Assembly: GCA_031316235.1 (NCBI GenBank)
Contig: JALDRA010000001.1
Coordinates: 360,001-392,000 of the forward strand
Reading direction: 5' to 3'
Source of the DNA: Candidatus Scalindua sp.
Lineage (GTDB): Bacteria > Planctomycetota > Brocadiia > Brocadiales > Scalinduaceae
DNA length: 32,000 nucleotides
A program made the position numbers and the translations under genes. Under the pieces are notes generated by a model. That model was given only the letters and a program-made list of their open reading frames with translations, did no database searches and was not told the DNA's origin. Shown in pieces: positions 3,547-30,293 of the stretch (its first letter is position 1; each line of letters opens with the position of its first letter).

Positions 3547-3657
3547 TATACTCATTGTATAAAGGTTTTCTGATAAAATCCGGGAAAAAAGGAGCGAGTC
3601 TACCATTAACCAGGCTTTGGTTTTAGAAAAATATAAAACCAGATCGTTTTTAGTATA
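3547..3657 (+). repeat. R1 intergenic mosaic repeat, copy 1 (beta subfamily, short form, 111 bp)
   Basis: The left end is TATACTCATTGTATAAAGGTTTTCTGATAAAATCCGGG. The right arm is AACCAGGCTTTGGTTTTAGAAAAATATAAAACCAGATCGTTTTTAGTATA. It shares both ends and the internal order with 9 other copies in the window. Confidence 0.85.
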
Positions 3658-3771
3658 TTCGGCGAAATGAGTATGGATTTAAGGATTACCTCCGACATCT
3701 TTAATGAAAAATTGGTCTTCAAAATTTTTTATTTGTGCTCAGGAGTACCCGTGATCACAAATAGCTGATTC

Positions 3772-3914
3772 GTGCTTGAACGAAAACTGCCCATCTGCTA
3801 CACTGCTGTAATAATTCCGCAATCCTCAAGTATCTTGCTGTATACCGGTTACGAGATTTGCGCACCTTATGTCTGAGCAGTTTTGATTCAAGCACAGGAT
3901 TTCCGTTCAAGCAC
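3772..3914 (+). repeat. R2 inverted-repeat element, copy a (MITE-like)
   Basis: The 5' arm GTGCTTGAACGAAAACTGCCCA faces the 3' arm GAGCAGTTTTGATTCAAGCAC, an imperfect terminal inverted repeat. The core ..CTGCTGTAATAATTCCGCAATCCTCA..CCGGTTACGA.. aligns with copies at 6992 and 10911. There is a 3' tail AGGATTTCCGTTCAAGCAC. Confidence 0.75.
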
Positions 3915-3945: not shown

Positions 3946-4683
3946 ATGCACGATGATGGCCGTTGGAAATTAAGAGATTTGTTCAAGGTATTTCTTTTCT
4001 ATTTTCTCATGATGATGGGAATACCGGTTCTTTTACAAATTGTAAAAAAACTTTTCGGACTTGATATATCTGAATTTATCAGACAAAATGTTACACTTCT
4101 CAGTATCTCCCTGGTTGTTAATATTCTCACTTGCCTCTATGTGTTTTATACCGTCCGTGTAGGTTACAATCAACCGTTGCGGGTGCTGGGCTTGACAGCC
4201 GATAACTGGAAATCCGATGCCTGGAAGGGCCTTAAACATTACATTGTGGTTCTCCCTGTCATTCTTTTCGCAGGTTATGTGGTAAATTATGTCTCAGAAT
4301 TATTTGGTGTTCCACCTGACAATCAGGAAATTATTACAAAATTTTTAGAAGAAGAGTCGATACCCGTACTCGTTTTTATGGTACTTTTTGGAACATTGGC
4401 AGCACCTATTGTTGAAGAAATTCTTTTTCGAGGTTTCCTTCAGCCGGTAATTAGGCCTGCCCTTGGCAAAACAGGCACAATTATTGTCAGCGGCGGGATC
4501 TTTGCGCTGGTACATTTGAATGCACATGTTTTTCTTCAAATTTTTATTTTAGGATTGTTATTGGCCTATTTATTTGAGCAAACAAAGTCATTGATAGCAC
4601 CGATAACCGTTCATCTGTTGCATAATTCTATTACATTAGTTTTTCTCTTATCATATAAGCAATTTTTAAAAGGCCATGTTTAA
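3946..4683 (+). CDS. CPBP family intramembrane glutamic endopeptidase (CAAX protease/Abi family)
   Basis: Multi-pass membrane protein with motif 1 EEILFRG, FALVH and HLLHN. The ORF opens at a TTG at 3922 and the first ATG is at 3946, so the start is uncertain. The 3' end overlaps tyrS by 8 nt. Confidence 0.8.
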   Translation: MHDDGRWKLRDLFKVFLFYFLMMMGIPVLLQIVKKLFGLDISEFIRQNVTLLSISLVVNILTCLYVFYTVRVGYNQPLRVLGLTADNWKSDAWKGLKHYIVVLPVILFAGYVVNYVSELFGVPPDNQEIITKFLEEESIPVLVFMVLFGTLAAPIVEEILFRGFLQPVIRPALGKTGTIIVSGGIFALVHLNAHVFLQIFILGLLLAYLFEQTKSLIAPITVHLLHNSITLVFLLSYKQFLKGHV

Positions 4684-5887
4684 GAACATTGAAGAACAGT
4701 TAGAGATCATCAGGCGGGGCAGCGTCGACATCGTTCGGGAAGAAGAGCTTGTTGAGAAACTCAGGAGATCAATAAAAACACACACTCCTCTGCGTATAAA
4801 GCTGGGCCTTGATCCCACCGCACCAGATATACATATTGGAAACGCAGTACCGATCCATAAGTTACGCCATTTTCAGCAACTGGGGCATACCGCAATACTT
4901 ATCATCGGGGACTATACGGCTCTGGTAGGTGACCCTACCGGGGTAAACAGGACAAGACCTCAGCTGACTCACAAAGAAATAAAAGAAAACACAAAAACTT
5001 ATTTAAACCAGCTGGGGAAGATATTAAATTTAGAAAAAACAGAAATCCATTACAACAGTAAGTGGTTTAGTAAAATGAAATTTATGGAAGTAATCTCGCT
5101 GGCCTCAAAGATGACGGTAGCAAGGATGTTAGAACGGGATGATTTCACAAAAAGATACAATTCCGGAGTCCCCATAAGCCTTCATGAATTCATTTACCCG
5201 TTAATGCAGGGATATGATTCTATAATGATTAGAAGTGACGTAGAGATAGGAGGTACCGATCAGACATTTAGTTTACTCGTGGGTCGTGATCTGCAGAGAG
5301 ATAAGAACATGGAGCCACAGGTTGCTCTTACCACTCCACTGCTCGAAGGAATCGATGGTAATAAAAAAATGAGCAAGAGTCTTGGCAACTATATTGGAAT
5401 ATGTGATGAACCAAAAGAGATTTTCGGTAAAGCAATGTCCATTCCCGACAATCTCATGCGTAAATATTTTGAATTAGCTACAGATGCCACATTCGATGAA
5501 ATAGACCGCTGCTTAAGTGACCATCCGCGGCAGGCGAAAGTCAATCTGGGGAAAGCCATTATCCGTCGTTATCACACTGAAGAAACAACTGAAAGGGTAG
5601 CAGAAGAATTTGACAGGATTTTTAAAGAACGGAAGCTCCCAGATGATATCCCGCAAATTACCCTTTCTCAAGAAGCGGTTGCTGATCAAAAACTGTGGCT
5701 GGTAAAACTGCTGGTGTTAACCGGTTTCGCAAATACAAACGGAGAAGCAAGAAGATTGATAACTCAGGGTGGTGTAAGTATTGACGACAAGACTTTAACC
5801 GATCCGTCTCTTGAGGTTTTCATAAAAACAGGAATGATCCTCAAGGTAGGAAAACGTCGTTTCGCAAAAATTATACTCATCTCATAA
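4676..5887 (+). CDS. tyrS: tyrosine--tRNA ligase
   Basis: 403 aa with HIGN (HIGH motif), an exact KMSKS, and a C-terminal S4-like block GEARRLITQGGVSIDD. The last five codons and the TAA stop lie inside R1 copy 2. Confidence 0.95.
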   Translation: MFKNIEEQLEIIRRGSVDIVREEELVEKLRRSIKTHTPLRIKLGLDPTAPDIHIGNAVPIHKLRHFQQLGHTAILIIGDYTALVGDPTGVNRTRPQLTHKEIKENTKTYLNQLGKILNLEKTEIHYNSKWFSKMKFMEVISLASKMTVARMLERDDFTKRYNSGVPISLHEFIYPLMQGYDSIMIRSDVEIGGTDQTFSLLVGRDLQRDKNMEPQVALTTPLLEGIDGNKKMSKSLGNYIGICDEPKEIFGKAMSIPDNLMRKYFELATDATFDEIDRCLSDHPRQAKVNLGKAIIRRYHTEETTERVAEEFDRIFKERKLPDDIPQITLSQEAVADQKLWLVKLLVLTGFANTNGEARRLITQGGVSIDDKTLTDPSLEVFIKTGMILKVGKRRFAKIILIS

Positions 5888-5983
5888 TGGTTTTCGGATA
5901 AAATCCGAGATAAATTTGAGCGAGTATACCTTCACCAGGATTTGGTTTCCAGTAAAACCGAAAACCAAATCGGTTTTAGTATA
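5872..5983 (+). repeat. R1 intergenic mosaic repeat, copy 2 (alpha subfamily, short form, 112 bp)
   Basis: The sequence is TATACTCATCTCATAATGGTTTTCGGATAAAATCCGAGATAAATTTGAGCGAGTATACCTTCACCAGGATTTGGTTTCCAGTAAAACCGAAAACCAAATCGGTTTTAGTATA. It spans the entire gap between the convergent tyrS and SurA-like genes. Confidence 0.9.
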
Positions 5984-5986
5984 TCA

Positions 5987-6958
5987 TCAATAGAACCTCT
6001 TGATTACCACATTTTTTTTAAGTTTTTGCAGGTATTCCCTCTTCTTTTTAAGAAACTCATCACGGAAAAGTATCTGATAAATTTTGTCTTGCGCCTCTTC
6101 AAAAGAGAGAGTTTTGGCGTGGATAATATCCTCAACTTTAAAGATGTGGTATCCGATGGCTGTCTCGACAACCTTGCTGATTTCATCTTTCCTGAGCTTC
6201 ATAATATCTTCGACAAGGTCTTTCCTGAAATCCTTTACTTCATCAAACCCCCACAAACCACCCTTGTATGAGTGTGGACCTTCAGAAAATTCCTTGGCAA
6301 TATCAGCAAATATTTCGCCATCCTCCAGTTTTTTCAGGAGCGTTTCAGCAAACGTTTTTGCCTCTTCACGTGAATCATAACTCGAAAATCTCACCAATAT
6401 CTGCCGGAAACTCAGGCTCCCCTCTTCTGAATAATCATCAATATGCTCTTCATAATAACGTTTCATTCTTCTGGGAGTGACGATTATCTTTCTGTACACA
6501 TTCTCACGTAGAATTTCATCAACCATTATGTCTTTCTTTAACTCAGCTCTCTTTTTCATGGGATTAATACCCTGTTTGTGAGCCAAATCATAAAATTTAA
6601 AAAGTGAGCCGACTTCATCGATGGCTCCTTTTACAAATGACTCTAATTGTTTTTCAACCGATTCAGATTTTGCGGGATCAGAAAGAATGGTCTTCTCTGC
6701 TTCCTGTACGAGGATTCTTCTGTCAATTAATTCTTCAACAGCGTTATAAATCAATTCTTGCTTCTTTCGTAACAGCTCTTCTCCGGTATAGTTCTCTTCT
6801 GCGAGATAAAAGGCCTCGGCTACACGGCTTCTCACTTCAAATTCTGTAATTATCTCACCATTGACAATGACTCGTACTGCTTTCAGGTTATCGGCATTCA
6901 CGTGGTATAAACAAAAAAACTGGAGAAGTATAAATACGGATAATCTTAAAGATTTCAT
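5987..6958 (-). CDS. SurA/PrsA-like periplasmic peptidyl-prolyl isomerase (parvulin type)
   Basis: 323 aa with an N-terminal signal peptide MKSLRLSVFILLQFFCLYHVNA, a SurA-N-like helical region, and a parvulin block FSEGPHSYKGGLWGF...IGYHIFKVE. Confidence 0.75.
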   Translation of the reverse strand: MKSLRLSVFILLQFFCLYHVNADNLKAVRVIVNGEIITEFEVRSRVAEAFYLAEENYTGEELLRKKQELIYNAVEELIDRRILVQEAEKTILSDPAKSESVEKQLESFVKGAIDEVGSLFKFYDLAHKQGINPMKKRAELKKDIMVDEILRENVYRKIIVTPRRMKRYYEEHIDDYSEEGSLSFRQILVRFSSYDSREEAKTFAETLLKKLEDGEIFADIAKEFSEGPHSYKGGLWGFDEVKDFRKDLVEDIMKLRKDEISKVVETAIGYHIFKVEDIIHAKTLSFEEAQDKIYQILFRDEFLKKKREYLQKLKKNVVIKRFY

Positions 6959-6991
6959 GCAGTTCCCTCCGGAAACAATTTTACTTTTTAA

Positions 6992-7136
6992 GTGGATGAA
7001 CGAAAGCTACCCATCTACTGCGTTGCTGTAAAAATTCCTTAATCCTCACGTACTTGAGTACGCTCCGGTTACGAAATTTTTACGCGTCTTGTATCTGGGC
7101 AGTTTTCGTTCATCCACTGGAGCTCTGTGCAAACAT
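6992..7136 (+). repeat. R2 inverted-repeat element, copy b (best preserved)
   Basis: A perfect 14-bp terminal inverted repeat, GTGGATGAACGAAA (6992-7005) against TTTCGTTCATCCAC (7104-7117), extends imperfectly to about 27 bp. Inner pairs are GTAAAAATT/AATTTTTAC and CGTACT/AGTACG. The tail to about 7136 aligns with the other copies. Confidence 0.8.
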
Positions 7137-10200: not shown

Positions 10201-10656
10201 CTTATGCTCCTGGCCTGTCTTAATGGTAAGGGTGTTTCCCTCGATAATCTCGGGTGACGGGACCTGGTGCAAAAGTGCTTGAATGGGTGTTACGATAATC
10301 TGGTTTACAGGTGTCTTGCTCTCGGTATGCTGCACTATCCTGTGTAAGATGCTCGCCTGCCGTACAACCGTCTCGTTATCACCTGGAAACTCATCTGAAA
10401 CAGGAAAGTAGAGGACTTCACCGGAAAAAAAGATGCTACAATCCTCAAAGACATCTTCCGCATCTTCTATTTTTGGAGTTACGAAGAGTATCTTTCTTTT
10501 TTTGATCGATTTCGTGGTATCTGCCAGGCTCGATAGTAAAAAAGCGGAAGATGACCCCCATAGACCCTGAATACGTGGCTCTTTTCCTGCCCGCAGATCA
10601 TTGACTATATTCTGATACGTTACATTCTTTTCAAGTGCCCGAAAGAACTTCTTCAT
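7285..10656 (-). CDS. mfd: transcription-repair coupling factor
   Basis: Helicase motifs GDVGYGKTE, IIDEEQRFG, LTATPIPRT and QLRGRVGR are present, with a CarD-like region GDYVVHAGYGIARF and a TRCF C-terminal domain. I place the start at the ATG at 10656 (MKKFFRALEKN). The 41 upstream codons in the ORF track are read-through of R1 copy 3. Confidence 0.95.
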   Translation of the reverse strand: MKKFFRALEKNVTYQNIVNDLRAGKEPRIQGLWGSSSAFLLSSLADTTKSIKKRKILFVTPKIEDAEDVFEDCSIFFSGEVLYFPVSDEFPGDNETVVRQASILHRIVQHTESKTPVNQIIVTPIQALLHQVPSPEIIEGNTLTIKTGQEHKQEFLERWLINGGFERTRMVELPGEFSLRGGILDIFPHFSEIPHRIEFFGDEVDSIRTFHPETQLTERTVEECELLGVQTDPVNSLSFRTTDFSAEKGLDDKADGESARGSIHNGGRVSLFEYLPEGSWIVFKELADIENKIMSIHTNLRSQTNAISMDTIMESCCGLKKVYVSRLPFEREDVHSFSIKVTDHFDKEIDASIKQVKEITLSQNNTLIFCSNEAEEQRLRELLTGSDSLIKPSQKTRCRKKKTAQDHISFDHVKFHTGHLNHGFIFEEISLAILTHHEIFSRYQQRRDSREIVKTRAIDSFLDLEVGDYVVHAGYGIARFLGMQMLQDDGDFESVGEFLVLEFDEGARVYVPVTKIELVQKYISGFDHIPKLSKLGKQTWKRKKEMAESAVQDVASELLSLQAIRDAKQGIVYPEDNEWQREFESEFIFQETEDQLKVIDEIKQDMRSSRPMDRLICGDVGYGKTEIAIRAAFKVVMYGKQVAVLVPTTLLAQQHYRTFSERMADYPIRIDMLCRFKTRKEQKSILEELENGRLDIVIGTHRLVQKDVIFRDIGLVIIDEEQRFGVQHKERLKRFRETVDVLTLTATPIPRTLHMSLLGARDISSLNTPPQARQSIKTQLIRFDTTLIRKAIVRELNRDGQIYFVHNRVKNIHAVASLLKRIVPEARISVGHGQMSERELEKIMVEFVNRKSDILVSTTIIESGLDIPNVNTIFINRADAFGLADLHQLRGRVGRYKHRAYTYLILPQNRPITPEAEKRLKAIVDFSELGAGFKIAMRDLEIRGAGNIIGVQQHGHIEAVGYEMFCRLLEIAIRKAKNESVSVYADVHIHLHLEAYIPVFYISDLKLRIGIYRKINRLSSLQGVIELEKEVSDRFGRIPKPVKNLFTESEIRIGAQNNHIRSLKRVNGAIIFFFENMKKAESLFNNSQGEVKVLDNNELYLRLPGKSMSSEDIAGFVKRLLNP

Positions 10657-10703
10657 GGAAAAAATAATTCCTGTACCCAGTTGGCGGCCTGATATACCGA
10701 TCT

Positions 10704-10831
10704 TATACTGGATTTCGGATAAAATCCGGAAAAAACGGAGCAGGTAAAGTCCTCGACGTTTATTGTCCGGGGATACCATTAACCAGGCTGTGGTTTTTAG
10801 AAAAATCTAAAACCAGATCGGTTTTAGTATA
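10704..10831 (+). repeat. R1 intergenic mosaic repeat, copy 3 (beta subfamily, long form with M hairpin module, left arm shortened, 128 bp)
   Basis: The sequence is TATACTGGATTTCGGATAAAATCCGGAAAAAACGGAGCAGGTAAAGTCCTCGACGTTTATTGTCCGGGGATACCATTAACCAGGCTGTGGTTTTTAGAAAAATCTAAAACCAGATCGGTTTTAGTATA. Confidence 0.9.
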
Positions 10832-10910
10832 CTCTATGCCTTACCTGACGATTTGGCTGAAGCCGATCATAATTATACTTCCCCCACAATGCCTGGGCAA
10901 GAATTATCTA

Positions 10911-11053
10911 GTGGCTGGGCCAACACTACCCACCTGCTGCCATCCTGCAGTAATTCCTTAATCCTCATGAACATGAGTACCTCACGGCTATGAAATCATC
11001 ACCCCTTCTATCCGGGCTGTTTTGTTTCAACCAGAGGATTTTCGTTCAAACAT
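10911..11053 (+). repeat. R2 inverted-repeat element, copy c (degenerate)
   Basis: The core ..CTACCCACCTGCTG..GTAATTCCTTAATCCTCATGAACATGAGTAC.. and the tail CTGTTTTGTTTCAACCAGAGGATTTTCGTTCAAACAT align with copies a and b. The terminal inverted repeat is only partly retained. Confidence 0.65.
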
Positions 11054-11165
11054 AAATTTAAATATCCGCAAATCTCAAATCCTTAATCATGATTCCGGGT
11101 CTTTCTTTCAAGAAACTGCTTAACATTGTCACTCTTCAATGTTATAATTTTTCCAATGTTTTAAA

Positions 11166-11304
11166 TATACTCATCATACAATGGTTTTCGGATAAAATCC
11201 GAGATAAAATTGAGCGAGTAAGGTCCTCGGCGCTTTTTGTCCGGGGATACCTTCACCAGGATTTGGTTTCCGGTAAAACCGAAAACCAAATCGGTTTTAG
11301 TATA
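11166..11304 (+). repeat. R1 intergenic mosaic repeat, copy 4 (alpha subfamily, long form, 139 bp)
   Basis: Matches copy 2 with a few substitutions and small length differences, plus a 27-nt insert AGGTCCTCGGCGCTTTTTGTCCGGGGA between GAGCGAGTA and TACCTTCACCAGG. Confidence 0.9.
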
Positions 11305-11338
11305 CTGTATTTCCCAGTGTAAGAAAATTCCAATCCCT

Positions 11339-12412
11339 ATGAAAAGTAACGTCTTTTTTTCGCAGACAAAAGAGGGTGAATCACATCCTTCAATAGCCAA
11401 TAAAATAGCGATTCTTTTTGACGCAGCGGAGGTGAAAAGTGTCATCAATCGAGGGGATATGGTCGGCATTAAGACCAGTTTTGGTGAAAAGGGGAACATT
11501 GGCCACATTAGACCTCCCTTAATAAAGGCCTTTGTAGATAAGGTGAAGGTAAGTGGTGGCAAACCATTTCTCTTTGAAACCAATACCCTGTATGTAGGAA
11601 AACGCTCAAATGCAATTGATCATTTAATGCTTGCCCATGAACACGGTTTTACCATTGAGAACACCGGCGCTCCCGTCATTATCGGAGACGGTCTCTTCGG
11701 GGAGCATGATTACACGGTCAGGCTTGATCAAAAGTTATGTAAGAATGCGCATATTGCAGGAGTAGCAAAGGCTTCAAATGCTCTCATATCAGTTGCCCAT
11801 GTTACCGGGCATCTTGCCACGGGTATGGGTGGAACTTTTAAAAACATTGGTATGGGTCTCTCTTCACGAGGTGGTAAGCTTGCTCAACATTCCGGGGTAC
11901 TGCCACAAATAATCAAAAAAAAGTGTAAAATATGCAAGATTTGTCAGGTATGGTGTCCAGTGGATGCAATCACAATGGGTGAGGAAGCCGCCATTATTAA
12001 CCCAGAAAAATGTATTGGTTGTGGTGAATGCCTTGCCGTCTGCCAATTTGATGCAGTCAAGATTGCATGGGATGAAGATACGGTAAATCTGCAGAAAAAA
12101 ATTGCTGAATACAGCCTTGCCGTCTTAGAAGAAAAGCGGGACAAAGCTGCATTCTTTAATTTCCTGACCCACATGACTGCACATTGTGACTGCATGGATA
12201 AACCTTACAAACCCGATATCCCCGATATTGGCATCATGGCATCTAAAGATCCTGTCGCTCTTGAAAAGGCTACCATTGATATGATAAATGATCGCACAGG
12301 AAAAGATTTTTTCCGATCTATTTGGCCAGAGATTGATTACACCGTCCAGCTTCAGCATGCACATGAGATAGGACTGGGAAATCTGGAATACCATTTGCGG
12401 ACATTACAGTAG
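11339..12412 (+). CDS. DUF362 domain protein with 2x[4Fe-4S] ferredoxin insert
   Basis: Two ferredoxin-type cysteine motifs, CKICKICQVWCPVDAI and CIGCGECLAVCQFDAV, sit inside a DUF362-like body. I place the start at the ATG at 11339 (MKSNVFF). The upstream 34 codons in the track are R1 copy 4 read-through. Confidence 0.8.
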   Translation: MKSNVFFSQTKEGESHPSIANKIAILFDAAEVKSVINRGDMVGIKTSFGEKGNIGHIRPPLIKAFVDKVKVSGGKPFLFETNTLYVGKRSNAIDHLMLAHEHGFTIENTGAPVIIGDGLFGEHDYTVRLDQKLCKNAHIAGVAKASNALISVAHVTGHLATGMGGTFKNIGMGLSSRGGKLAQHSGVLPQIIKKKCKICKICQVWCPVDAITMGEEAAIINPEKCIGCGECLAVCQFDAVKIAWDEDTVNLQKKIAEYSLAVLEEKRDKAAFFNFLTHMTAHCDCMDKPYKPDIPDIGIMASKDPVALEKATIDMINDRTGKDFFRSIWPEIDYTVQLQHAHEIGLGNLEYHLRTLQ

Positions 12413-12431
12413 GTTGCAGATCTGACCTGTT

Positions 12432-12536
12432 TATACTAAAACCGATCTGGTTTTAGATTCTTCTAATAACCAAAGCCTGGTTAATATACTCATCTTACAA
12501 TGGTTTTCGGATAAAATCCAGTATAAGATGAGTATA
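12432..12536. repeat. R1 copy 5, rearranged or chimeric (inverted right arm joined to a self-closed left arm)
   Basis: 12432-12484 is a beta right arm in reverse orientation (TATACTAAAACCGATCTGGTTTTAGATTCTTCTAATAACCAAAGCCTGGTTAA). 12485-12536 is a forward left arm closed by a perfect 13-bp inverted repeat, TATACTCATCTTA...TAAGATGAGTATA. Confidence 0.8.
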
Positions 12537-12619
12537 GAACAAACTCACTTGATAGAGTAGAATTCTCTGCCGGATGTATACCGGAAAAAGATACCGATTA
12601 CAGCGAGGGATTTTTTATT

Positions 12620-14023
12620 ATGACTTCACTGAAACAAAAAGTTGCAATTATTGGTCTCGATTCAGCACCACCTGAGTTGGTTTTTGACAGGTGGATTGAC
12701 TATCTCCCCAACATTAAACACCTCATCTCAAATGGGATCTATGGCAAACTGGAGAGTACAATTCCGGCAATTACCTGTCCCGCCTGGGCATCAATGGTAA
12801 CCAGCACTAGTCCCGGGAGGCTTGGTATATACGGCTTCAGGAATAGAAATCACTACAACTATGATAGTCTGGAGTTTGTTGATTCAAACACCATTAATGA
12901 AGAAACCATATGGAGTTTACTCTCAAGGCATGGCAAACGTTCTATCGTTATCGGCGTACCTCAGACATATCCTCCCAAGCCTTTTAACAATGGATATCTG
13001 GTAACCTGCTTTCTTACCCCTAATAAAGATTGTCAGTATACCTATCCTGATGAACTCAAGTATGAAGTGGAACGGGTATCAGGCGGATACATCATGGATG
13101 TGAGTAATTTCAGGAGTAACGAAAAGGAGCAGATTCTCCATACGACTTATGAAATGACTGAAAAAAGATTTAAGCTTGCAAGGCACTTTCTCCAGAATGA
13201 GGATTGGGATTTCTTTATGATGGTAGAAATGGGAACTGACCGGATACAGCATGCCTTCTGGGAATTTTTTGATGAGAGACACCGCTCCTATTCAGCCGGT
13301 AATAAATACGAAAATGTGATATTTGATTATTACCGGTATGTGGACGGTGAAATAGGCAAGATTCTCACTCTGTTAGGCAGCAATACTACCACCTTACTCG
13401 TTTCAGACCATGGTGCAAAAATGATGGAAGGCGGAATCTGCATAAATGAATGGCTCATTAACAACGGATACCTCAAGCTCACCCATTATCCTGAAAACAT
13501 TACTCAGATAAGCAAAGATTTAATTGACTGGAACAAAACAATGGTTTGGGGTGAAGGCGGTTATTACGGACGATTATTTTTCAACATAAAGGGCCGGGAA
13601 CCAAGAGGGATCATTCCCCATCAACAGTACGAAATCGTGAGAAATGAATTGAAATCGGTACTCGAAGATTTGAGGGACCAGAATGGGAAAAAAATCAATA
13701 CGAAAGTATTTAAACCAAATGAAATTTACTCAGAGTGCAGGAATATCCCGCCGGATCTGCTTGTCTATTACGGAAACCTGTCCTGGCGATCCGTGGGTAG
13801 TGTTGGTCATTCTACCATCTGGACAGACGAAAACGACACAGGCCCCGACTCCGCAAATCATGCCCAGCACGGGATTTTCGTAATGTCAGACGTCAACCAG
13901 CATCTCTCTGAAAAAAGGAGCGGTTTACACATTATGGATGTAACACCTACAGTATTAAATATCATGCAATTAGAAATTCCATGGTATATGGAAGGAAATG
14001 TTATCCGCTGGACAGTAAAATGA
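12620..14023 (+). CDS. alkaline phosphatase superfamily protein (type I phosphodiesterase/nucleotide pyrophosphatase-like)
   Basis: 467 aa with an N-terminal metal/nucleophile region IIGLDSAPPEL...PAITCPAWASMVTSTSPGRLGIYGF and a distal VSDHGA motif. Confidence 0.8.
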   Translation: MTSLKQKVAIIGLDSAPPELVFDRWIDYLPNIKHLISNGIYGKLESTIPAITCPAWASMVTSTSPGRLGIYGFRNRNHYNYDSLEFVDSNTINEETIWSLLSRHGKRSIVIGVPQTYPPKPFNNGYLVTCFLTPNKDCQYTYPDELKYEVERVSGGYIMDVSNFRSNEKEQILHTTYEMTEKRFKLARHFLQNEDWDFFMMVEMGTDRIQHAFWEFFDERHRSYSAGNKYENVIFDYYRYVDGEIGKILTLLGSNTTTLLVSDHGAKMMEGGICINEWLINNGYLKLTHYPENITQISKDLIDWNKTMVWGEGGYYGRLFFNIKGREPRGIIPHQQYEIVRNELKSVLEDLRDQNGKKINTKVFKPNEIYSECRNIPPDLLVYYGNLSWRSVGSVGHSTIWTDENDTGPDSANHAQHGIFVMSDVNQHLSEKRSGLHIMDVTPTVLNIMQLEIPWYMEGNVIRWTVK

Positions 14024-15245: not shown

Positions 15246-15324
<79 letters not shown>

Positions 15325-15983: not shown

Positions 15984-18764
15984 TCACTGAGTCTGATACG
16001 TATAATCCACATATTTCCATGTACCGCTCTTAAACCAGAGGCGGACATACAGATTCTCTCCATTCAGGGGTATTCCCGATACGGTTGCTGATGTATTGAG
16101 ATACTGATTTCGGCTGTAAACATCTCCATATGGTGTCCTATCGAGTGATTCATACGTTGTCCCAACTGCCAGCCAGTACTGACTAATCCAGATATCGGTA
16201 CTCCACTCAAAGGTAACAGCTGCTGCCGTTAATGTTGATCCAGGTATTGGACTCGTCATCTCTGGAGGTTTTATGACAACTTCCGGCCATCTCCCGGATA
16301 ATTCATAGTCACTTATATAAATGACTGGCCCGACAACCTTTATTCGATAGGTACCGATGGTAGTGGTATCGTAATTTAATGTCCCTGTTTTGCAGCTATT
16401 AAATTGGACAGAATCAACCGTTACTCCACCTGGGTCGTAAAGTTCCAGCACATTTGAATAATTACAGGATAACTGTCCTTTAACATCGAGTGTGATTGTT
16501 CCTGCGCTTCCTACATCTATCTTATACCAGTCTTCATTATCACGGCATAAAATTGATTTATAACTCTTACCTGAGATTAAAGACCCGTAGGCCTGAGCTG
16601 CAGTATCATTCGGTTCATATGAGTCATTATTACATCCTATATTTGTATATGTTTCGTACGTATAATCCACATAATTCCATGTCCCGTTATTAAACCACAA
16701 CCTTACATACAGATTCTCTCCATTGAGGGGTATTCCTGATACAGTTGCTGAAGTATTGAGATACTGGTTTCGGCTGTAAATATCTCCGTATGGTGTTCTA
16801 TCGAGTGAAGCCAGGCTTGTCCCGACTGAGAGCCAATGCTGGCTGACAGCGCTTCCGGCAACCCACTCAAATTCCACCGTAGGTGTCGTTAATGTTGTAT
16901 TAAATCTCGGATCCGCATATCTTGATCCAGGTCTCGGACTCCTGATATAAGAATTTTCAGGGTACTCGAACTCGATCGCACCAATATCACATGAAGCAGT
17001 TCCATCACCATTGCCATCTACCGGACGACTCTTGCCAAGTTGATCTTTTTGAGGACATGCAGAGTTGTTCCCGGCATCTATAGCAGGGCTATCGGGTAGT
17101 AACTGAACATGTCCGTGCCCTGGTAAACCATCATCGATGAATTCCCGCAGACGCGGGTCACCGGTACTATCACTCTCAAGGAGGGTGATAGTGCAATTCA
17201 CCGGATCACCAATATCACCAATAATATTATATCCGAGTGAAGTTATGGGGCCCTCACATTCACTCGGATAGTCAACGTCAGCAGAATTATATGCAAGAAT
17301 AGTGTTTTTCAGTTCAACTGTTCCCGCTACTTGAGGACCACCGGATGAATGAGGGGTTTCATTAGAAATGGCAGGTCCATATCCATGATTGTCAGAAATA
17401 GTACTGTTGGTGATACTCACCATACCGAAAAGATTATAAATTCCAACGCCCCAATACGCCCTAGCATTATGAGCGATTGTGCTGTTTTCAACAGTCACTA
17501 TTCCTTCATAGTTATTTATACCACAACCCATATCACCTCTATTAAGCGAAATAGTACTATTCATTATATTCATCAAACCATTAAAATTAGCGATACCACC
17601 TCCAATGATTGCTCTATTATCAGTAATGGTACTGTTGGTGATAGTCACAATACCACTACTTGAAACATCTTCTGAAACCGCACTCGTAAGCACCTCCGGG
17701 CTGGATTCAGCTCTTGTTCTGGCTATTTTTCCCCGATAGGCCTTAAACGTAAAACGAATGTCAAGATCGTGTATGATTTTCCTATCCATACTCATCTCAC
17801 TGTTTTTCCCTTCTGTATCATTGATCCCGGTTCTGTTATTTGTTTCGGTATTGTCAATAAAAGTTCTACTGAGTATCCCTCCACCAGAACCAGCAATACT
17901 ATCAGCCATGTTATTTTTTAAAATGCTGTTTGTGATAGTAATGGTGCCACCATAGTTAAGGATACCGCCACCTCTCCCAGAATCTGCTGCCAAGTTATCA
18001 GAGACAGTGGTGTCAGTGATAGTAACTGAGCCACGATTGTTACATAAACCGCCGCCTGCACCATCACCCTCTTTTATTCCTGCTATGTTGCTAGATATAG
18101 AACCGTTTGTGATTTTGACTGTACCTCCTGAGTTATCTATACCACCACCAGAAGTACGAAAACCATTAGTCACATTATTCTTTACACTGCTGTCTGTGAT
18201 AGTAATGGTACCGATATTAGCGATACCACCGCCATTATGCGCTTCGTTATCTAAGATACTGCTGTTTCTTATGGTAACCGTGCCAATGTTATACATTCCC
18301 CCGCCGTCAAAGGTTTCAGTTTGGTCACGAGAAATCCGGTGAGGAGCAATACCTCCTCTAATAGTTAAACTGTCTATCTGCAAAACACCTGTATCAGCAA
18401 CATGAAAGATACGAAAGAGCGGCGCATCTCTTTCCCGTTGGATGATTGTTGAATCGGTGCCAGTACCTTTAAGGGTGATACTACTCGTTACAGAGGGAAG
18501 GCCGTTAGGTCCATTGGTATCGTTGTCCATTCTGGTCAGGGTATACGTACCGCCTTGCAGGTTAATGGTATCGTCTTCATTGCTGCTGTTCGCAGTATTG
18601 ATTGCATCGATAAGGGCAGCTGCATCACCTGACGGTATGGTAAATTCCGCGGCATGCAGATTATCCAAACGATCCAGGTTAAAGAAACTATATGAAATGA
18701 ATAGAACACTCAACATTAAATTAAATGTCCACGTTCCTCTTTTTTTTATAGCTCTATTGCTCAT
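15984..18764 (-). CDS. large secreted right-handed beta-helix protein (choice-of-anchor Q / Pmp-like repeats) with a PPC domain flanked by a duplicated ~94-aa domain
   Basis: 926 aa with an N-terminal signal/anchor. It starts AALIDAINTANSS..INLQGGTYTL and has many GGGI.N.G..TITNS..S.N repeats. The beta-helix ends DQLGKSRPVDGNGDGTASCDIGAIEFE. A pre-peptidase C-terminal-like block follows (NDSYEPNDTAAQAY..EDWYKIDV). Two copies of ..FEW....Q.WL.VGT...SLDRTPYGD.YSRNQYLNTSATVSGIPLNGENLYVRLWF are present. Confidence 0.8.
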   Translation of the reverse strand: MSNRAIKKRGTWTFNLMLSVLFISYSFFNLDRLDNLHAAEFTIPSGDAAALIDAINTANSSNEDDTINLQGGTYTLTRMDNDTNGPNGLPSVTSSITLKGTGTDSTIIQRERDAPLFRIFHVADTGVLQIDSLTIRGGIAPHRISRDQTETFDGGGMYNIGTVTIRNSSILDNEAHNGGGIANIGTITITDSSVKNNVTNGFRTSGGGIDNSGGTVKITNGSISSNIAGIKEGDGAGGGLCNNRGSVTITDTTVSDNLAADSGRGGGILNYGGTITITNSILKNNMADSIAGSGGGILSRTFIDNTETNNRTGINDTEGKNSEMSMDRKIIHDLDIRFTFKAYRGKIARTRAESSPEVLTSAVSEDVSSSGIVTITNSTITDNRAIIGGGIANFNGLMNIMNSTISLNRGDMGCGINNYEGIVTVENSTIAHNARAYWGVGIYNLFGMVSITNSTISDNHGYGPAISNETPHSSGGPQVAGTVELKNTILAYNSADVDYPSECEGPITSLGYNIIGDIGDPVNCTITLLESDSTGDPRLREFIDDGLPGHGHVQLLPDSPAIDAGNNSACPQKDQLGKSRPVDGNGDGTASCDIGAIEFEYPENSYIRSPRPGSRYADPRFNTTLTTPTVEFEWVAGSAVSQHWLSVGTSLASLDRTPYGDIYSRNQYLNTSATVSGIPLNGENLYVRLWFNNGTWNYVDYTYETYTNIGCNNDSYEPNDTAAQAYGSLISGKSYKSILCRDNEDWYKIDVGSAGTITLDVKGQLSCNYSNVLELYDPGGVTVDSVQFNSCKTGTLNYDTTTIGTYRIKVVGPVIYISDYELSGRWPEVVIKPPEMTSPIPGSTLTAAAVTFEWSTDIWISQYWLAVGTTYESLDRTPYGDVYSRNQYLNTSATVSGIPLNGENLYVRLWFKSGTWKYVDYTYQTQ
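15987..16268 (-). repeat. intragenic domain repeat, C-terminal copy
   Basis: Aligns without gaps to 16647-16928 at an offset of exactly 660 nt. In the core 16001-16140 against 16661-16800 I count 17 mismatches in 140 nt. Confidence 0.85.
16647..16928 (-). repeat. intragenic domain repeat, internal copy
   Basis: Partner of 15987-16268. A 36-aa stretch (SLDRTPYGD.YSRNQYLNTSATVSGIPLNGENLYVRLWF) is identical except for one I/V. Confidence 0.85.
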
Positions 18765-19203
18765 TGGTTTATCCGTTGCTATTTTTTACATAATGCTCCA
18801 TAAAGTAAACAACCTTGCTGTCCTGGATTTACAAATCAACTATCCTCGGCAGTTATGCCATCTTTTCTCAGATCAATCATCAGCAGGTAGTTTTAAGACC
18901 CTTTACTTTGCGTCGCCTGGCCACTCAGGGTTTGCCCATTTCTGGTACTCTTAACCTGATCTGATATTATAGCGGAAGCATAGACAAAGCTGGTGCATTT
19001 GTCAATAGGACAGAGTAGGACACGTCAATTATAACGAACTGAGAATGGGTGTATTATCCCCAATTTCTCACCAATTCTTTTTCTAAAACTCTACAGCAAT
19101 TCATGGAGGGTAGGCATTGCCTACCGTCATTTATAGTAATACGAGAAATTGTAAGTTCAAACTGTTTTCAGTGATCAAACTTTTTAGGTTATCTACCCTC
19201 TTT

Positions 19204-21997: not shown

Positions 21998-22137
21998 TAT
22001 ACTAAAACCGATTTGGTTTTCGGTTTTACCGGAAACCAAATCTTGGTGAAGGTATCCCCGGACAAAAAACGCTGAGGACTTGTACTCGCTCAATTTTATC
22101 TCGGATTTTATCCGAAATCCAGCATGAGATGAGTATA
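21998..22137 (-). repeat. R1 intergenic mosaic repeat, copy 6 (alpha subfamily, long form, 140 bp, reverse orientation)
   Basis: The top strand reads TATACTAAAACCGATTTGGTTTTCGGTTTTACCGGAAACCAAATCTTGGTGAAGGTATCCCCGGACAAAAAACGCTGAGGACTTGTACTCGCTCAATTTTATCTCGGATTTTATCCGAAATCCAGCATGAGATGAGTATA. This is the reverse complement of the copy-4 type. Confidence 0.9.
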
Positions 22138-22160
22138 TCGCACCGGTTAAACGCAGTCAG

Positions 22161-22764: not shown

Positions 22765-23673
22765 ATGACGAAAACAGGTAACCAAAAAGTGTATGAGTAT
22801 TTGAAAATCTCCTTAATTATTACCTTAATGATTTGTACCTATTATAAGACATTTGTGTGGATGGAAGACAGATGGGGGAGTGAGAGTTCATATTACTCAC
22901 ACGGTTATCTCATTCCATTTGTAACGGTTTTTCTGATCTGGAGAAAAAGGGACTGTTTCCATGATATGGTATACTGTCCCTCCAATTGGGGTCTACCACT
23001 CTTTATTACCGGTATCCTCTTACAAATTTCAAGCGCTTTCCTACGCGTACACTTTTTGTCAGGATTTTCCTGTATTCTGGTTTTGTCAGGTATCGTCTTT
23101 TATCTTTTCGGTAAAAGCGTAGGGAACAAATTACTTTTCCCCATTCTGTTTCTCATAACGCTCATACCATTACCCCTATCTGTCATAGCAGGATTGAGTC
23201 TGAATATGAAGCTCTTTGCTGCTGCATGCGCGGTCAAGATTATTGATCTTATCGGTATAACTGTTATACAGGATGGAAGCAAGATATTTTTCAGTAACTG
23301 TACCCTGGTAGTAGGCGATGTCTGCAGTGGTCTCAAATCATTGATCGCCTTAATTTCTTTCGGGGCATTGTACGCATATACCTCCAGTGGAACATTTTAC
23401 ATGAAACCGTTTCTTTTTTTCGCTTCCATACCGGCAGCAATAGTGGCTAATATCATCAGGATTTTGATACTCTGCCTGGTAGCCCGGAATTGGGGAAGTG
23501 AAATTGCCTCAGGAATAGTTCATGATATAACCGGTATTCTCATCTTTGCGATAGCATTTATCCCACTCTATTTCCTGGCCGCAGTTCTGCAAAAGTTTGA
23601 ACGGCTGATCCTGTACAAAAATACCGGACACTCCCAGAGAAATAGTTTAACTCTTACTACTCATAACGTTTAG
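22765..23673 (+). CDS. exosortase (EpsH/Xrt family)
   Basis: 302 aa polytopic membrane protein. The N-terminal signature is W..DRWGSESSYYSHGYLIPFV, followed by a C.GL.S-type region (VCSGLKSLIAL) and the conserved arginine region ANIIRI. Confidence 0.85.
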   Translation: MTKTGNQKVYEYLKISLIITLMICTYYKTFVWMEDRWGSESSYYSHGYLIPFVTVFLIWRKRDCFHDMVYCPSNWGLPLFITGILLQISSAFLRVHFLSGFSCILVLSGIVFYLFGKSVGNKLLFPILFLITLIPLPLSVIAGLSLNMKLFAAACAVKIIDLIGITVIQDGSKIFFSNCTLVVGDVCSGLKSLIALISFGALYAYTSSGTFYMKPFLFFASIPAAIVANIIRILILCLVARNWGSEIASGIVHDITGILIFAIAFIPLYFLAAVLQKFERLILYKNTGHSQRNSLTLTTHNV

Positions 23674-23694
23674 CTACTTCTGGATTTTTCTACC

Positions 23695-24324
23695 ATGAAC
23701 AAACGATACGGCACTATAATCGGTCTACTTTTTGTGACTGCAATTAGTACCTTCTTCCTCTCCATGAATGTTCAACCAGGGCAAATTACCTCTTATGCCA
23801 AACAGCTTCCTTTAGATTTTAATGGTTGGCACGGGCAAGAGATTGCAGTAGACAAAAGAACACTGGAGATTCTCGAAACAAGTGATGTATTGATGCGCAA
23901 CTACAAAAGAGAAGAAAACACCCCCGTTCAGCTCTGTATCGTGTACGCGAGTAACAACAGGAAGGTCTCCCACCCCCCGGAAGTCTGCTACATAGGTTCA
24001 GGATGGTCATTAGAGGAGAAGGGTTCTTTGTTACTTTCCACACAGCCTGGAAACAAACCAGCATTTAAAGTTGTGAAACTCGTCATTGAGAGAGGCGGGG
24101 AAAAAAACCTGGTGCTCTATTGGTACAAGTGCAACGATGAATTTACAGCAAACTATTACTGGCAGCAAATTACTATTGTAAGAAAAGGGATACTGAATGG
24201 GAAGAGTACAAGTGGCCTGATAAGAGTTTCAACACAAATCGACGATAACGAAGATGTGTCCAGAGCACGAATTCAGGATTTCCTCATGGATCTTTTACCA
24301 TTAATGACAGAATATCTCCCATAA
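23695..24324 (+). CDS. exosortase-associated EpsI family protein
   Basis: 209 aa with one N-terminal TM segment. LP..F.GW.G.E...D.......L...D.L.R.Y and VSHPPEVCY.GSGW are typical of EpsI. The gene sits immediately downstream of the exosortase. Confidence 0.8.
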   Translation: MNKRYGTIIGLLFVTAISTFFLSMNVQPGQITSYAKQLPLDFNGWHGQEIAVDKRTLEILETSDVLMRNYKREENTPVQLCIVYASNNRKVSHPPEVCYIGSGWSLEEKGSLLLSTQPGNKPAFKVVKLVIERGGEKNLVLYWYKCNDEFTANYYWQQITIVRKGILNGKSTSGLIRVSTQIDDNEDVSRARIQDFLMDLLPLMTEYLP

Positions 24325-24409
24325 AGTGATCGTATCATACAATGTCTTTTTTGGTTGACTATTAAAACGTTTTTTGTAGAATCACAGGAAAATTTGTACA
24401 TGGGTTACC

Positions 24410-24763
24410 ATGTCAATTGCTATGAAAACTGAGAAAAGAACAAATCCAAGGATAGATGTCAATCTCTCCATTACACGCATAGGTGCCGCACTGAATATCT
24501 CTGAATCAGGAATGTGTGTCCTTTCCGACAAACCACTACCGATTGATTATGAAGTTAAGCTAAATTTAGCATTGCCTGATCCGGATAATGAGAGCAGTGA
24601 GACATCAAAAACTATCCAGATCGAAGGTGTAATCGTATGGATTAAATATTCAGAGCAAATAGACAAATATGAGATTGGAATTAAGTTTACGAAAATTGAA
24701 GGAGCAGGCAGAGTTCAGGTAAAAACCTTTATAGAAAATCATACACTAAATAATCCTCAATAA
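24410..24763 (+). CDS. PilZ domain protein (c-di-GMP binding motifs intact)
   Basis: 117 aa with RTNPR (RxxxR) followed by NISESG (D/NxSxxG) at the usual spacing. Confidence 0.8.
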   Translation: MSIAMKTEKRTNPRIDVNLSITRIGAALNISESGMCVLSDKPLPIDYEVKLNLALPDPDNESSETSKTIQIEGVIVWIKYSEQIDKYEIGIKFTKIEGAGRVQVKTFIENHTLNNPQ

Positions 24764-26796: not shown

Positions 26797-26909
26797 TTGA
26801 CTAAATCCGATTTGGTTTTAGATTGTTCTAAAAATCAAGACCTGGCTGCAGCCATATTCGCTCCGTTTTTCCCCGGATTTTATCCGAAAACCACTCTAAG
26901 ATGAATATA
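26797..26909 (-). repeat. R1 intergenic mosaic repeat, copy 7 (beta subfamily, short form, degenerate termini, reverse orientation)
   Basis: The top strand reads TTGACTAAATCCGATTTGGTTTTAGATTGTTCTAAAAATCAAGACCTGG...CGCTCCGTTTTTCCCCGGATTTTATCCGAAAACCACTCTAAGATGAATATA. Confidence 0.75.
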
Positions 26910-27013
26910 CCAGTGATGCCTGCATTTGTTAGCGCCCCGGTGGTTTTCAATCTTCAGGTTTCGCTAACTCTCTCCATAGTATAAAACATACCTTTTTTCT
27001 CAGCTGTACCGCG

Positions 27014-27544: not shown

Positions 27545-28483
27545 TTATTCATTACGTCCAGGAAATTTTTCCATAAGCGGGCTGTTATCGAAGTTTATGT
27601 GTGTCTGCATTGAGAGTGCCTTCCTGATATACTTGGGAAGGTTAAAGATTGCCTGATGAGTCGTACCATCATAGAAACGTAACTCCCCCTTAACTCTCTC
27701 AGCAATTCTCTTGTCAATCTCATCACGATTTAACAGGGTAGGATCGAGATTGTCTGTTGCCAGATTAAAACCCCAAAGCATTGCAAAGAATGGAATATGA
27801 GCAGCATAGGGGAACACATTGGCAAAAACCTCTTTCAATGTTCTATTCAGTATTGAATACGTGTGTAAGGCAAGAGGAGAGGTAGTACTGGCCTGGATAG
27901 CAAAAACACCTTGCGGGGTCAGTCTTTTTTTTACCACCTCATAAAATTCCCTGGTGAAGAGCTTATAGGAAGGACCTCCTTCCAGAGGACAGGTAATATC
28001 CATAATTATCACATCAAATTTTTCATCCCCTTCTTCCAGAAACATTCGTCCGTCTTCGAACAAGAGTACCGTTCTCTCATCAGAGTAACTTCCATCATGG
28101 AAGCTAGGCAGGTACTTCTTGGAGCATTCTACAACCTTTTCGTCAATATCCACCATTATTGCCTTATTGATAGATTTATGACGCAGCACTTCTCTTAAGG
28201 CTGCTCCCTCTCCCCCCCCAATAATGGCAACCTTGGTTGGTTCAGGATGCAGTATTAATGCCGGCTGGACAAGCGATTCATGGTAAACATACTCGTCCAA
28301 CTCCGCAGATTGGAATTCATTATCTAGAATCAGACATCGCCCGAAACACTCAGTCTCAGCAACTACGATCTCTTGAAACTCTGATTCTCCATGGTAGAGG
28401 GTTCCTTTGATAGCATGTTTGTGGATTTCAAACTGATTAAAATAGTCGTAAATCCATCGTGAAGGGATATCTTTTTTTGACAT
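27545..28483 (-). CDS. speE: polyamine aminopropyltransferase (spermidine synthase)
   Basis: 312 aa with YHE.L, the IIGGGEGAALREVL SAM-binding loop, DIDE.VV and DVIIMD. Confidence 0.9.
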   Translation of the reverse strand: MSKKDIPSRWIYDYFNQFEIHKHAIKGTLYHGESEFQEIVVAETECFGRCLILDNEFQSAELDEYVYHESLVQPALILHPEPTKVAIIGGGEGAALREVLRHKSINKAIMVDIDEKVVECSKKYLPSFHDGSYSDERTVLLFEDGRMFLEEGDEKFDVIIMDITCPLEGGPSYKLFTREFYEVVKKRLTPQGVFAIQASTTSPLALHTYSILNRTLKEVFANVFPYAAHIPFFAMLWGFNLATDNLDPTLLNRDEIDKRIAERVKGELRFYDGTTHQAIFNLPKYIRKALSMQTHINFDNSPLMEKFPGRNE

Positions 28484-28484
28484 A

Positions 28485-28624
28485 TATATTCATCTTATAA
28501 TGGTTTTCGGATAAAATTAGAGAAAAAACTGAACGGGTAAAGTCCTCGGCGTTTTCTGTCCGGGGATACCAGCAACCAGGATCTGGTATTCAGAAAATAC
28601 CAAATCCTGATCGGTTTTCGTACA
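28485..28624 (+). repeat. R1 intergenic mosaic repeat, copy 8 (gamma hairpin variant, long form, 140 bp)
   Basis: The sequence is TATATTCATCTTATAATGGTTTTCGGATAAAATTAGAG...GTAAAGTCCTCGGCGTTTTCTGTCCGGGGATACCAGCAACCAGGATCTGGTATTCAGAAAATACCAAATCCTGATCGGTTTTCGTACA. It fills the speD-speE gap, starting 1 nt from the speE start codon and ending 4 nt from the speD stop. Confidence 0.85.
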
Positions 28625-28628
28625 CCAC

Positions 28629-29099: not shown

Positions 29100-29211
29100 A
29101 ATACTGAAACGAAATCCTTGTTGCTGGTATCCCCGGACAGAAAATGCCGAGGGCTTTCCCCGCTCCGTTTTTTCCCGGAATCTATCCGAAAACCATTACA
29201 GGATCAGTATA
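29100..29211 (-). repeat. R1 intergenic mosaic repeat, copy 9 (beta-like, M module present, right-arm hairpin deleted, reverse orientation)
   Basis: The top strand reads AATACTGAAACGAAATCCTTGTTGCTGGTATCCCCGGACAGAAAATGCCGAGGGCTTTCCCCGCTCCGTTTTTTCCCGGAATCTATCCGAAAACCATTACAGGATCAGTATA. Confidence 0.8.
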
Positions 29212-29378
29212 ATTCAAATAGTATGACAAGAAACCTCTGATTTGCCCAAAAATTACTCTTTTCACTATCCTAATCAAACAAATCTCCAGAGAATAAACAA
29301 AGTTAGCATTCTCATATATTTCCCGTCATTTGTCAAGAAAGAACTGCAGGATACAGGTTATATTTTTCGAAGCGAATC

Positions 29379-30137: not shown

Positions 30138-30156
30138 TCCAGACTGCCTGTCAATA

Positions 30157-30293
30157 TATACTCATCTTACAATGGTTTTTGGATAGATTCCGGAAAAAAC
30201 GGAGCGGGGAAAGTCCTCGGCGCCTGGTCCGGGGATACCAGCAACCAGGCTTTGGTTTTTAGAAAAATCCAAGGCCAAACCGGTTTTCGTATA
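30157..30293 (+). repeat. R1 intergenic mosaic repeat, copy 10 (beta subfamily, long form, 137 bp)
   Basis: The sequence is TATACTCATCTTACAATGGTTTTTGGATAGATTCCGGAAAAAACGGAGCGGGGAAAGTCCTCGGCGCCTGGTCCGGGGATACCAGCAACCAGGCTTTGGTTTTTAGAAAAATCCAAGGCCAAACCGGTTTTCGTATA. Confidence 0.85.

Follow-up and report, generated by a model that had tools for sequence, protein, structure and literature searches.

An abundant palindromic repeat of Candidatus Scalindua is probably a MITE-like mobile element whose complementary hairpin arms need no RNA function

Known palindromic repeats and the R1 element

The Correia elements (CREE/NEMIS) of Neisseria are non-coding repeats of ~100–155 bp that are dispersed in hundreds of intergenic copies, with terminal inverted repeats of ~26 bp and a TA duplication; an internal segment distinguishes their long forms from their short ones, and once transcribed they can fold over their full length into one long hairpin. 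RUP of Streptococcus pneumoniae (~107 bp) is also non-coding, is associated with a TA duplication and is thought to be mobilized in trans by a transposase of the IS630 family; RUP and the IS630-derived bacterial MITEs display subfamilies with distinct consensus sequences. The BIME/REP elements of enterobacteria and the BOX elements of pneumococcus are intergenic mosaics of palindromic units, into which elements of the IS110 family insert. REPs, which are linked to RAYT genes, have no terminal inverted repeats and make no target duplication.

The repeat described here, R1, is represented by 10 copies in the window, i.e., the whole stretch of 32 kb that was analyzed. It resembles the Correia elements in size, non-coding character, intergenic dispersal, inverted ends of ~26 bp, TA duplication and the presence of long and short forms. 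However, its terminus is perfect over only 6 bp, supplemented by a subterminal motif; it is built of two tandem palindromic units, with further GC-rich palindromes nested in them, and its host is an anammox planctomycete. We know of no sequence relationship between R1 and the Correia elements, and the likeness is one of architecture. With RUP it shares the small size, the absence of coding capacity and the TA duplication, but it is far more modular, and no cognate IS630-like element was found in the ~1 Mb searched. Like BIME/REP and BOX, it is an intergenic mosaic of palindromic modules, one copy of which (in the Scalindua locus L094; loci are given below by their L numbers) has an IS110 element inside it; unlike REPs, it has inverted termini and a TA duplication. 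By analogy of architecture, Correia/NEMIS and RUP would be the closest known elements.

We regard it as probable that R1 is a non-autonomous, MITE-like mobile DNA repeat, and that the complementarity of its hairpin arms arises through ancestry and palindrome dynamics, with no RNA function needed. The description below gives a name and an anatomy to a very abundant repeat of marine anammox genomes, which in these 32 kb occurs alongside a second one, R2.

Anatomy of R1 and its copies in the window

R1 measures 113–145 nt, and up to ~200 nt with nested modules, the short form being ~113 nt and the long form ~140 nt. It contains no ORF, and its copies sit in intergenic DNA; in size (below ~300 bp) and lack of coding capacity it conforms to the MITE type. 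The boundaries are sharp (TATACT…AGTATA), with no information in the flanks, and the element proper, TACTCATC...GGTTTTAGTA, is bracketed by the duplicated TA. The ends form a bipartite inverted repeat of ~26 bp, composed of TATACT, 10 variable bases and the motif TGGTTTTCGG. Taken as 26-mers, the two ends (TATACTCATCTCATAATGGTTTTCGG and, in reverse complement, TATACTAAAACCGATTTGGTTTTCGG) are identical at 18 of the 26 positions and the perfect terminal repeat is only 6 bp long; R1 thus has the terminal inverted repeats of a MITE, in a version that is short and imperfect beside those of the classic MITEs.

The interior is assembled from a left palindromic unit, an optional 28-nt middle hairpin, a right unit and optional GC-rich palindromes, with the left and right units being related to each other. 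The 3′ arm of the right-unit hairpin (CCGAAAACCA) is simultaneously the right subterminal repeat of the element, presumably a binding site for its transposase, and the 5′ arm repeats the same motif in inverted, inward-facing orientation. Each element contains three to four occurrences of the motif TGGTTTTCGG/TGGTTTTAGA, which face both ways. The type of right arm (alpha, beta or gamma; see below), the variant of the left unit and the middle hairpin are found in near-free combination, and this mosaicism points to exchange between copies. We considered the alpha and beta arms as markers of subfamilies of whole elements and rejected this, because the modules combine almost freely.

The 10 copies of the window lie in both orientations, all of them intergenic, and their neighbors are housekeeping genes (gltX, tyrS, mfd, PEPCK, speD/speE and purD). 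All but copy 5 are matches to a sequence profile. Copy 1 (3546–3657, + strand) is a short form, lacking the middle hairpin, with a beta arm; copy 2 (5871–5983, +), between the convergent tyrS and PPIase genes, is a short form with an alpha arm of the CCAG apex variant. Copies 3 and 4 are long forms: the former (10692–10831, +) has a beta arm whose hairpin, recognized by folding, spans ~10791–10815, and the latter (11166–11304, +) an alpha arm with its hairpin at 11260–11292, as indicated by both an inverted-repeat scan and folding. Copy 5 (12432–12536, −) is rearranged, with a beta right unit (12432–12484) joined to a left unit (12485–12536); the arms of this left unit have turned into a nearly perfect palindrome, and its interior has the opposite orientation to the right unit. 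Copy 6 (21998–22139, −), in an intergenic region between divergent genes, is a long form carrying an alpha arm. Copy 7 (26797–26910, −) is a short form whose beta arm is degenerate; the genes on its two sides, PEPCK and CMD, are convergent. Copy 8 (28484–28625, +; nhmmer), a long form that has both the middle hairpin and a right arm of the gamma type, is located between speD and speE, with its left end 2 nt from the start codon of speE. Copy 9 (29103–29212, −) is a long form whose right-arm hairpin has been deleted between GGTTT direct repeats. Finally, copy 10 (30156–30293, +) is a long form with a beta-derived arm that has been re-registered (GGCTTTGG...CCAAGGCC), its stem thereby reaching into the upstream flank.

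The position of copy 8 bears on the expression of its neighbor. At the empty speD–speE site of another locus (L126, 3990–4003) a Shine-Dalgarno-like AGGTG precedes the ATG of speE by 8 nt; in the window (28481–28490) the insertion has moved the AGGTG to ~145 nt upstream, and the end of R1 abuts the start codon. Hence, the translation signals of speE must differ in this organism. More generally, R1 and R2 part genes from their native ribosome-binding sites, speD/speE being an example.

Distribution of R1

An exact 19-mer of the R1 left hairpin was found in at least 120 genome stretches, nearly all of them in three Candidatus Scalindua/Scalinduaceae MAGs. An nhmmer profile made from the copies in the window recovered 172 R1 copies in 967 kb, solely in Scalindua loci, and none in 13 chance matches from other taxa. 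Among the sequences searched, R1 is specific to Candidatus Scalindua/Scalinduaceae, a group of anammox Planctomycetota. The organism of the window is a further Scalinduaceae species, whose Logan contigs are short and end inside R1, illustrating how the R1 and R2 repeats break short-read assemblies. The R1 pattern had no matches in viral contigs, and among metagenome contigs it identified four with R1, which added one arm variant. Our first idea, that the repeat is the leader of a Bacteroidetes PUL or a small RNA, was abandoned, as the 1164-aa ORF of the window is Mfd and the host a planctomycete.

Across species R1 copies are 93–96% identical, whereas the genes are 66–79% identical. Such identity needs continuing activity of a conserved source, gene conversion or selection on the sequence, which are not separable here. 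A keyword search of the literature returned no description of this repeat; within that search, R1 is a MITE family with no earlier description. The element is of an ordinary kind, and it is the host that is unusual.

Insertion sites and target duplication

Comparisons between relatives provide the evidence for mobility. A syntenic 8-kb block, purD-252aa-speD-speE-(CMD)-PEPCK, harbors four R1 copies in the window and none in L126 (from the CBDCUS MAG), L127 and L128, in all three of which the orthologous speD–speE spacer is 7–42 nt long and free of R1. L125 is the closest relative, with a SpeE 96% identical to that of the window; its spacer between purD and the gene for the 252-aa protein has an R1 copy at a different TA site from that in the window, 40 nt away and in the opposite orientation. 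Each therefore supplies the empty site for the other, and the comparison reads GAGA-TA-TTGGTT for the empty against GAGA-TA-[CACTCATC...TTTCGTA]-TA-TTGGTT for the filled state. In four further loci R1 lies inside R2, where the intact sequence CCCAGG-TA-CAAGG contrasts with the filled CCCAGG-TA-[R1]-TA-CAAGG. Both kinds of comparison thus reveal a duplication of the TA target, as in MITEs, and the duplication is also seen at the speD–speE insertion, with one end mutated. R1 further occupies different places in L101 and L113, and its positions differ between the RBC_AMX3 and CBDCUS MAGs in regions that are otherwise alignable, so that the family has the many dispersed copies, and the presence/absence differences between relatives, of a MITE. 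The spacer of copy 7 and its counterpart in L126 are too diverged for a readable alignment.

Relative to the flanking ORFs, 26 R1 copies are co-directional and 27 anti-directional, while 20 lie in divergent and 12 in convergent arrangements; there is no bias, nor the consistent orientation or position with respect to genes that an orientation-dependent cis-regulatory element would display. We also found no consistent prediction of a terminator or a promoter inside the copies. Thus, the sharp ends, terminal inverted repeats, TA duplication, presence/absence differences and unbiased orientation, along with the lack of an Rfam match (below), indicate that R1 behaves as a MITE.

Mobilization of R1

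We propose that R1 would be mobilized in trans, and that the enzyme would be a DDE transposase of the IS630/Tc1-mariner type, which duplicates TA and might bind the subterminal TGGTTTTCGG motif. New copies would come from intact source copies, and this would keep their arms complementary. No autonomous element or transposase gene with ends of the R1 type was found in the ~1 Mb of sequence searched, and the loci with split R1 ends contain either an IS110 insertion (L094) or ordinary genes (L076), with no parent element. The only multi-copy transposase in an all-against-all clustering of ORFs was an IS5/IS1182-like one (L029/L103), which we rejected as the parent since its ends, AGCNTGTTGCA, are unrelated to those of R1. 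The insertion in L094 (~4510–6206) is an IS110-family element (DEDD_Tnp_IS110 and Transposase_20 domains, with a frameshifted ORF) situated in the loop of the R1 middle hairpin. IS110 elements are known to target palindromes of the REP type, and this insertion echoes that preference.

The main rival to a DDE transposase is a mechanism like that of REP/REPIN or PATE elements, in which R1 would be moved as single-stranded DNA by an HUH Y1 transposase (RAYT or IS200/IS605 TnpA) that recognizes hairpins, with the hairpin shape being directly selected in the source copies. Its appeal is that R1 is built of hairpins, that the central hairpins of the left and right units are similar and in direct orientation (TGGTTTTCGGATAAAATCCGA versus TGGTTTCCGGTAAAACCGA), and that fragments of Y1-transposase genes of the IS200/IS605 type do occur in Scalindua loci. 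A search with approximate query sequences matched two such fragments only, both degraded, with the HUH motif HVHIF: one in L063 (4176–4574, −) and one in L024 (447–554, +). The L024 fragment comes shortly after an M3-type GC-rich palindrome, and 130 nt downstream of it there is an R1 copy. Moreover, all four R1 insertions into R2 share one orientation. A DDE element that targets TA would not be expected to show this, unless it was the composite that spread. However, the filled sites have a TA duplication and R1 has terminal inverted repeats, a combination at odds with REP/REPIN elements; to our knowledge, IS200/IS605 elements and REPs have neither feature. Nor did we see R1 units on either side of an intact Y1 gene, and the Y1 fragments go with the separate GC-rich palindromes rather than with the R1 ends. 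We therefore deem a Y1-driven origin improbable, and retain the MITE reading.

A related conjecture, to which we give somewhat more room though it too is unlikely, is that the right-arm hairpin may extrude in vivo as single-stranded DNA or a cruciform, and so serve as a structure for the R1 transposase or as a landing pad for other palindromes; at least three different GC-rich, REP-like palindromes of 27–30 nt are inserted precisely at its loop (see below). If so, the hairpin shape would be selected in the source copies, and Scalindua would host layered palindromes that target each other's loops.

Versions of the right-arm hairpin

The preliminary description of this DNA distinguished three right-arm versions, alpha, beta and gamma, and all three are indeed present in the window: several distinct sequences occupy one place in the element, each of them self-complementary beyond chance. 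Its coordinates for beta (10791–10815) hold, and those for alpha (11261–11293) and gamma (28576–28604) are off by 1–3 nt. By inverted-repeat scan the alpha arms of copy 4, 15 nt each and 93% complementary, lie at 11260–11274/11278–11292. Gamma, placed by the scan and by folding (with no strand assigned), is a 14-bp hairpin with the arms 28577–28590/28596–28609 and the loop CAGAA (CAGGATCTGGTATT-cagaa-AATACCAAATCCTG); its arms are 93% complementary, with one C·A mismatch that is G·T on the other strand. The 5′ arm of beta is TGGTTTTTAGA, which has one T more than in the earlier reading, the extra T forming a bulge. When folded as single-stranded DNA on both strands, every arm is far more stable than its dinucleotide shuffles (z = −3.2 to −6.1; gamma, −5.2 and −6.1), and hence these palindromes are not due to chance.

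The exchange of GGTTT for GGTAT and of AAACC for ATACC between alpha and gamma does, as had been pointed out, affect positions that pair with each other, turning T-A into A-T. Gamma also differs from alpha by an uncompensated T>C, the source of the C·A mismatch, by a 6-nt deletion at the apex, and by a 6-nt insertion at the 3′ base that prolongs the stem into the conserved CAGG flank. Between beta and alpha, the apex stem is CGGT/ACCG versus TAGA/TCTA and the register is shifted by one base. The alternative pairing of AAAACC (11282–11287) with GGTTTT (11293–11298) likewise exists, as does a longer alternative stem of 9 bp (11274–11282/11291–11299) in the alpha arm of copy 4. The alternative pairing is the predicted minimum-energy fold of the commonest variants (alpha-CCAG and beta) and is weakened in gamma by an A>T change.

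Two independent read-set assemblies carry an identical gamma arm, which is thus no assembly artefact. A gamma-specific pattern that allows for intermediates (TGGTWTTCAGAAAAWACCAAAT) had no matches in metagenome contigs, and gamma accordingly has the appearance of a variant confined to one locus. No polarity for the change came from the L125 orthologue, since the interior of that copy has been replaced. By our own estimate, which is not the output of a tool, a single T-A>A-T flip has a chance of ~0.1 in gamma, given the several substitutions in the arm; as a lone copy, the gamma flip is weak evidence.

A separate observation concerns the ‘uncompensated’ C in the 5′ arm of gamma (GATCTGG; gamma at 28577–28609). 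Three beta copies of the window (10763–10831, 3589–3657 and 12432–12484) carry a 3′ arm with CCAGATC in place of the CCAAATC of other genomes, and the complement of that G is the C in question; both halves of a possible T-A>C-G exchange thus exist in this genome, though never in one copy.

Remodeling of orthologous copies

Between strains whose SpeE proteins are 96% identical, the flanks of R1 are 91–98% identical and the interiors are drastically remodeled, through differences in the presence of the middle hairpin, deletion of an arm or replacement by a GC-rich hairpin. At the site of copy 9, the window has the middle hairpin and L125 the right arm, neither of them having both. At the speD–speE site, the L125 copy has the same unusual termini as that of the window, and its interior consists of a GC-rich hairpin with no gamma arm. 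In an R1 copy of L020 the apex is inverted, and in copy 5 of the window the left unit is inverted and its arms are homogenized. In at least two copies of the window, 8 and 10, several changes jointly restore or extend the pairing, and the 3′ arm complements the 5′ arm inclusive of conserved flank bases that lie outside the ancestral stem.

Replication template switching in inverted repeats leaves characteristic signatures, namely multi-base compensatory change, homogenization of arms and inversion of the spacer (PMC8794818; PMC8604942). Such quasipalindrome mutagenesis accounts for compensatory change, homogenization, stem extension and inversion without selection, and all four patterns occur among the R1 copies. 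It is a mutational process and not a family of elements, and at R1 it is read from sequence patterns only. Template switching or gene conversion matches the pattern seen in the orthologues, where modules have been gained and lost, arms deleted and loops inverted. In the mechanism that we favor, such events within and between palindromes would rewrite one arm from the other, and a single event could at once extend a stem, invert a loop or introduce ‘compensatory’ changes.

Tests for selection on secondary structure

From the complementary changes in the arms, the preliminary description had argued for selection on secondary structure, as single-stranded DNA or as RNA. This is not borne out: no significant covariation was found, and disrupted stems far outnumber compensated ones, the two outcomes that the description itself had named as refuting it. 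In a sequence-only alignment of 54 distinct arms, covariation was 0.092 against 0.098 in shuffled alignments, the main stem was paired at 83.6% against 83.1%, and both alternative stems were equally null. Even an alignment fitted with a covariance model, and so biased toward structure (139 matches, 100 distinct), gave a covariation of 0.077 against 0.078, with 293 of 500 shuffles at or above the observed value, and 6 double-change pairs against 4.7 (103/500); only its percentage of paired positions was marginal, at 85.4 against 84.8 (8/500). RNAalifold on 34 long-form copies returned a covariation term of −0.13 and a consensus fold from which the main hairpin is absent.

Nor are broken stems depleted, as such selection had been expected to bring about. 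Among 61 alpha copies, the main stem comprises 772 Watson-Crick cells, 47 A·C, 22 G·T and 13 other mismatches, i.e., 82 non-Watson-Crick cells versus three compensated ones. Distinct substitutions number 31 at 28 paired positions and 9 at 7 unpaired positions, which makes them equally frequent, and the transitions that give G·T on one strand or on the other amount to 8 versus 9 distinct types. Hence, the arm decays evenly and strand-symmetrically, and the decay of individual copies looks neutral. In a simulation, mutated alpha copies were slightly more stable than random mutants (−11.9 versus −10.7 kcal/mol, p ~0.007) on one strand; this excess is inflated by shared variants and is absent on the other strand. 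There was no Rfam match to R1 at the gathering threshold over the whole window or at E-values up to 1 over 10600–12700, where the relaxed search produced a single miRNA-hairpin match, by chance. R1 thus has neither the match to a curated model nor the significant covariation of a structured RNA family, and selection on RNA structure at its arm is unsupported.

A structured RNA, whether a small RNA or a cis-regulatory or processing element with the hairpin and the alternative stem both kept by selection, could nevertheless draw on several features: the great stability of the hairpins relative to shuffles, the two mutually exclusive folds, the location of several copies inside operons, where they would be transcribed (e.g., speD/speE), the slight stability excess of mutated alpha copies in the + orientation, and the tolerance of the alternative stem, in that orientation, for frequent variants as G·U (21 G·T versus 2 A·C cells). 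However, that last asymmetry is gone when distinct events are counted (the 8 versus 9 above), and to the missing covariation, on 54 or 100 distinct copies, and the RNAalifold result are added the indifference of R1 to gene orientation, with copies in divergent, convergent and tandem spacers alike, the absence of an Rfam match and of consistent promoter or terminator signals, and the loss of arms or swapping of interiors between orthologues of close strains. Taken together, these make an RNA function very unlikely. That R1 is instead a host-domesticated array of protein-binding sites, comparable to the BIMEs bound by IHF or gyrase, with arms that co-vary as copies of one dimer recognition sequence and a hairpin that never forms, is likewise very unlikely, for while the three to four TGGTTTTCGG/TGGTTTTAGA motifs per element in both orientations and the high conservation of R1 relative to genes between species would suit it, the copies decay evenly and lose whole arms, their positions are not conserved between species and the motif positions mirror transposon ends.

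The complementarity of the arms is better explained by the architecture of transposon ends together with DNA-level palindrome dynamics than by selection on structure. By the same token, when the arms of a repeated palindrome change in a complementary fashion, this counts as evidence of selection on RNA only if the shared ancestry of the copies and DNA-level template switching have been controlled for.

Other repeats and features of the window

The second abundant palindromic repeat, R2, measures ~135 nt; its inverted ends (AGTGGATGAACGAAA...TTTCGTTCATCCACT) are long, it gives matches on both strands, and it resembles a classical MITE. It is found in the window at 3771–3890, 6991–7121 and 10910–11039, and ~60 or more copies are present in the Scalindua loci. 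The four R1 copies mentioned above as lying inside it (in L009, L018, L083 and L031) occupy one and the same TA of R2, and their orientation relative to it does not vary.

At least three families of GC-rich palindromes of 27–30 nt (e.g., CCCGCCCGGCCTGTCAGCCGTTCGGACGGG and CCTGCCTGTGCGATGCACGCAGACAGG) are nested in R1, either immediately ahead of the right unit or exactly in the loop of its hairpin (CCAG^TAAAACCG); examples are L034 6183–6215, L037 3536–3570 and L022 5266–5295. Others stand alone (e.g., L010 2966, L084 2462 and L079 552), and the copies found outside R1 amount to 7/31, 2/10 and 4/10. Their occurrence outside R1 marks them as independent, REP-like repeats.

Apart from these repeats, the window has a c-di-GMP-I riboswitch aptamer (18845–18946, −; Rfam RF01051, 36.3 bits against a gathering threshold of 35) upstream of the gene for a 926-aa beta-helix repeat protein (15984–18764, −), with a PilZ-domain gene and exosortase/EpsI genes nearby (22765–24763). 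Its only tRNA gene is that for tRNA-Pro (TGG), at 15246–15321 (+).
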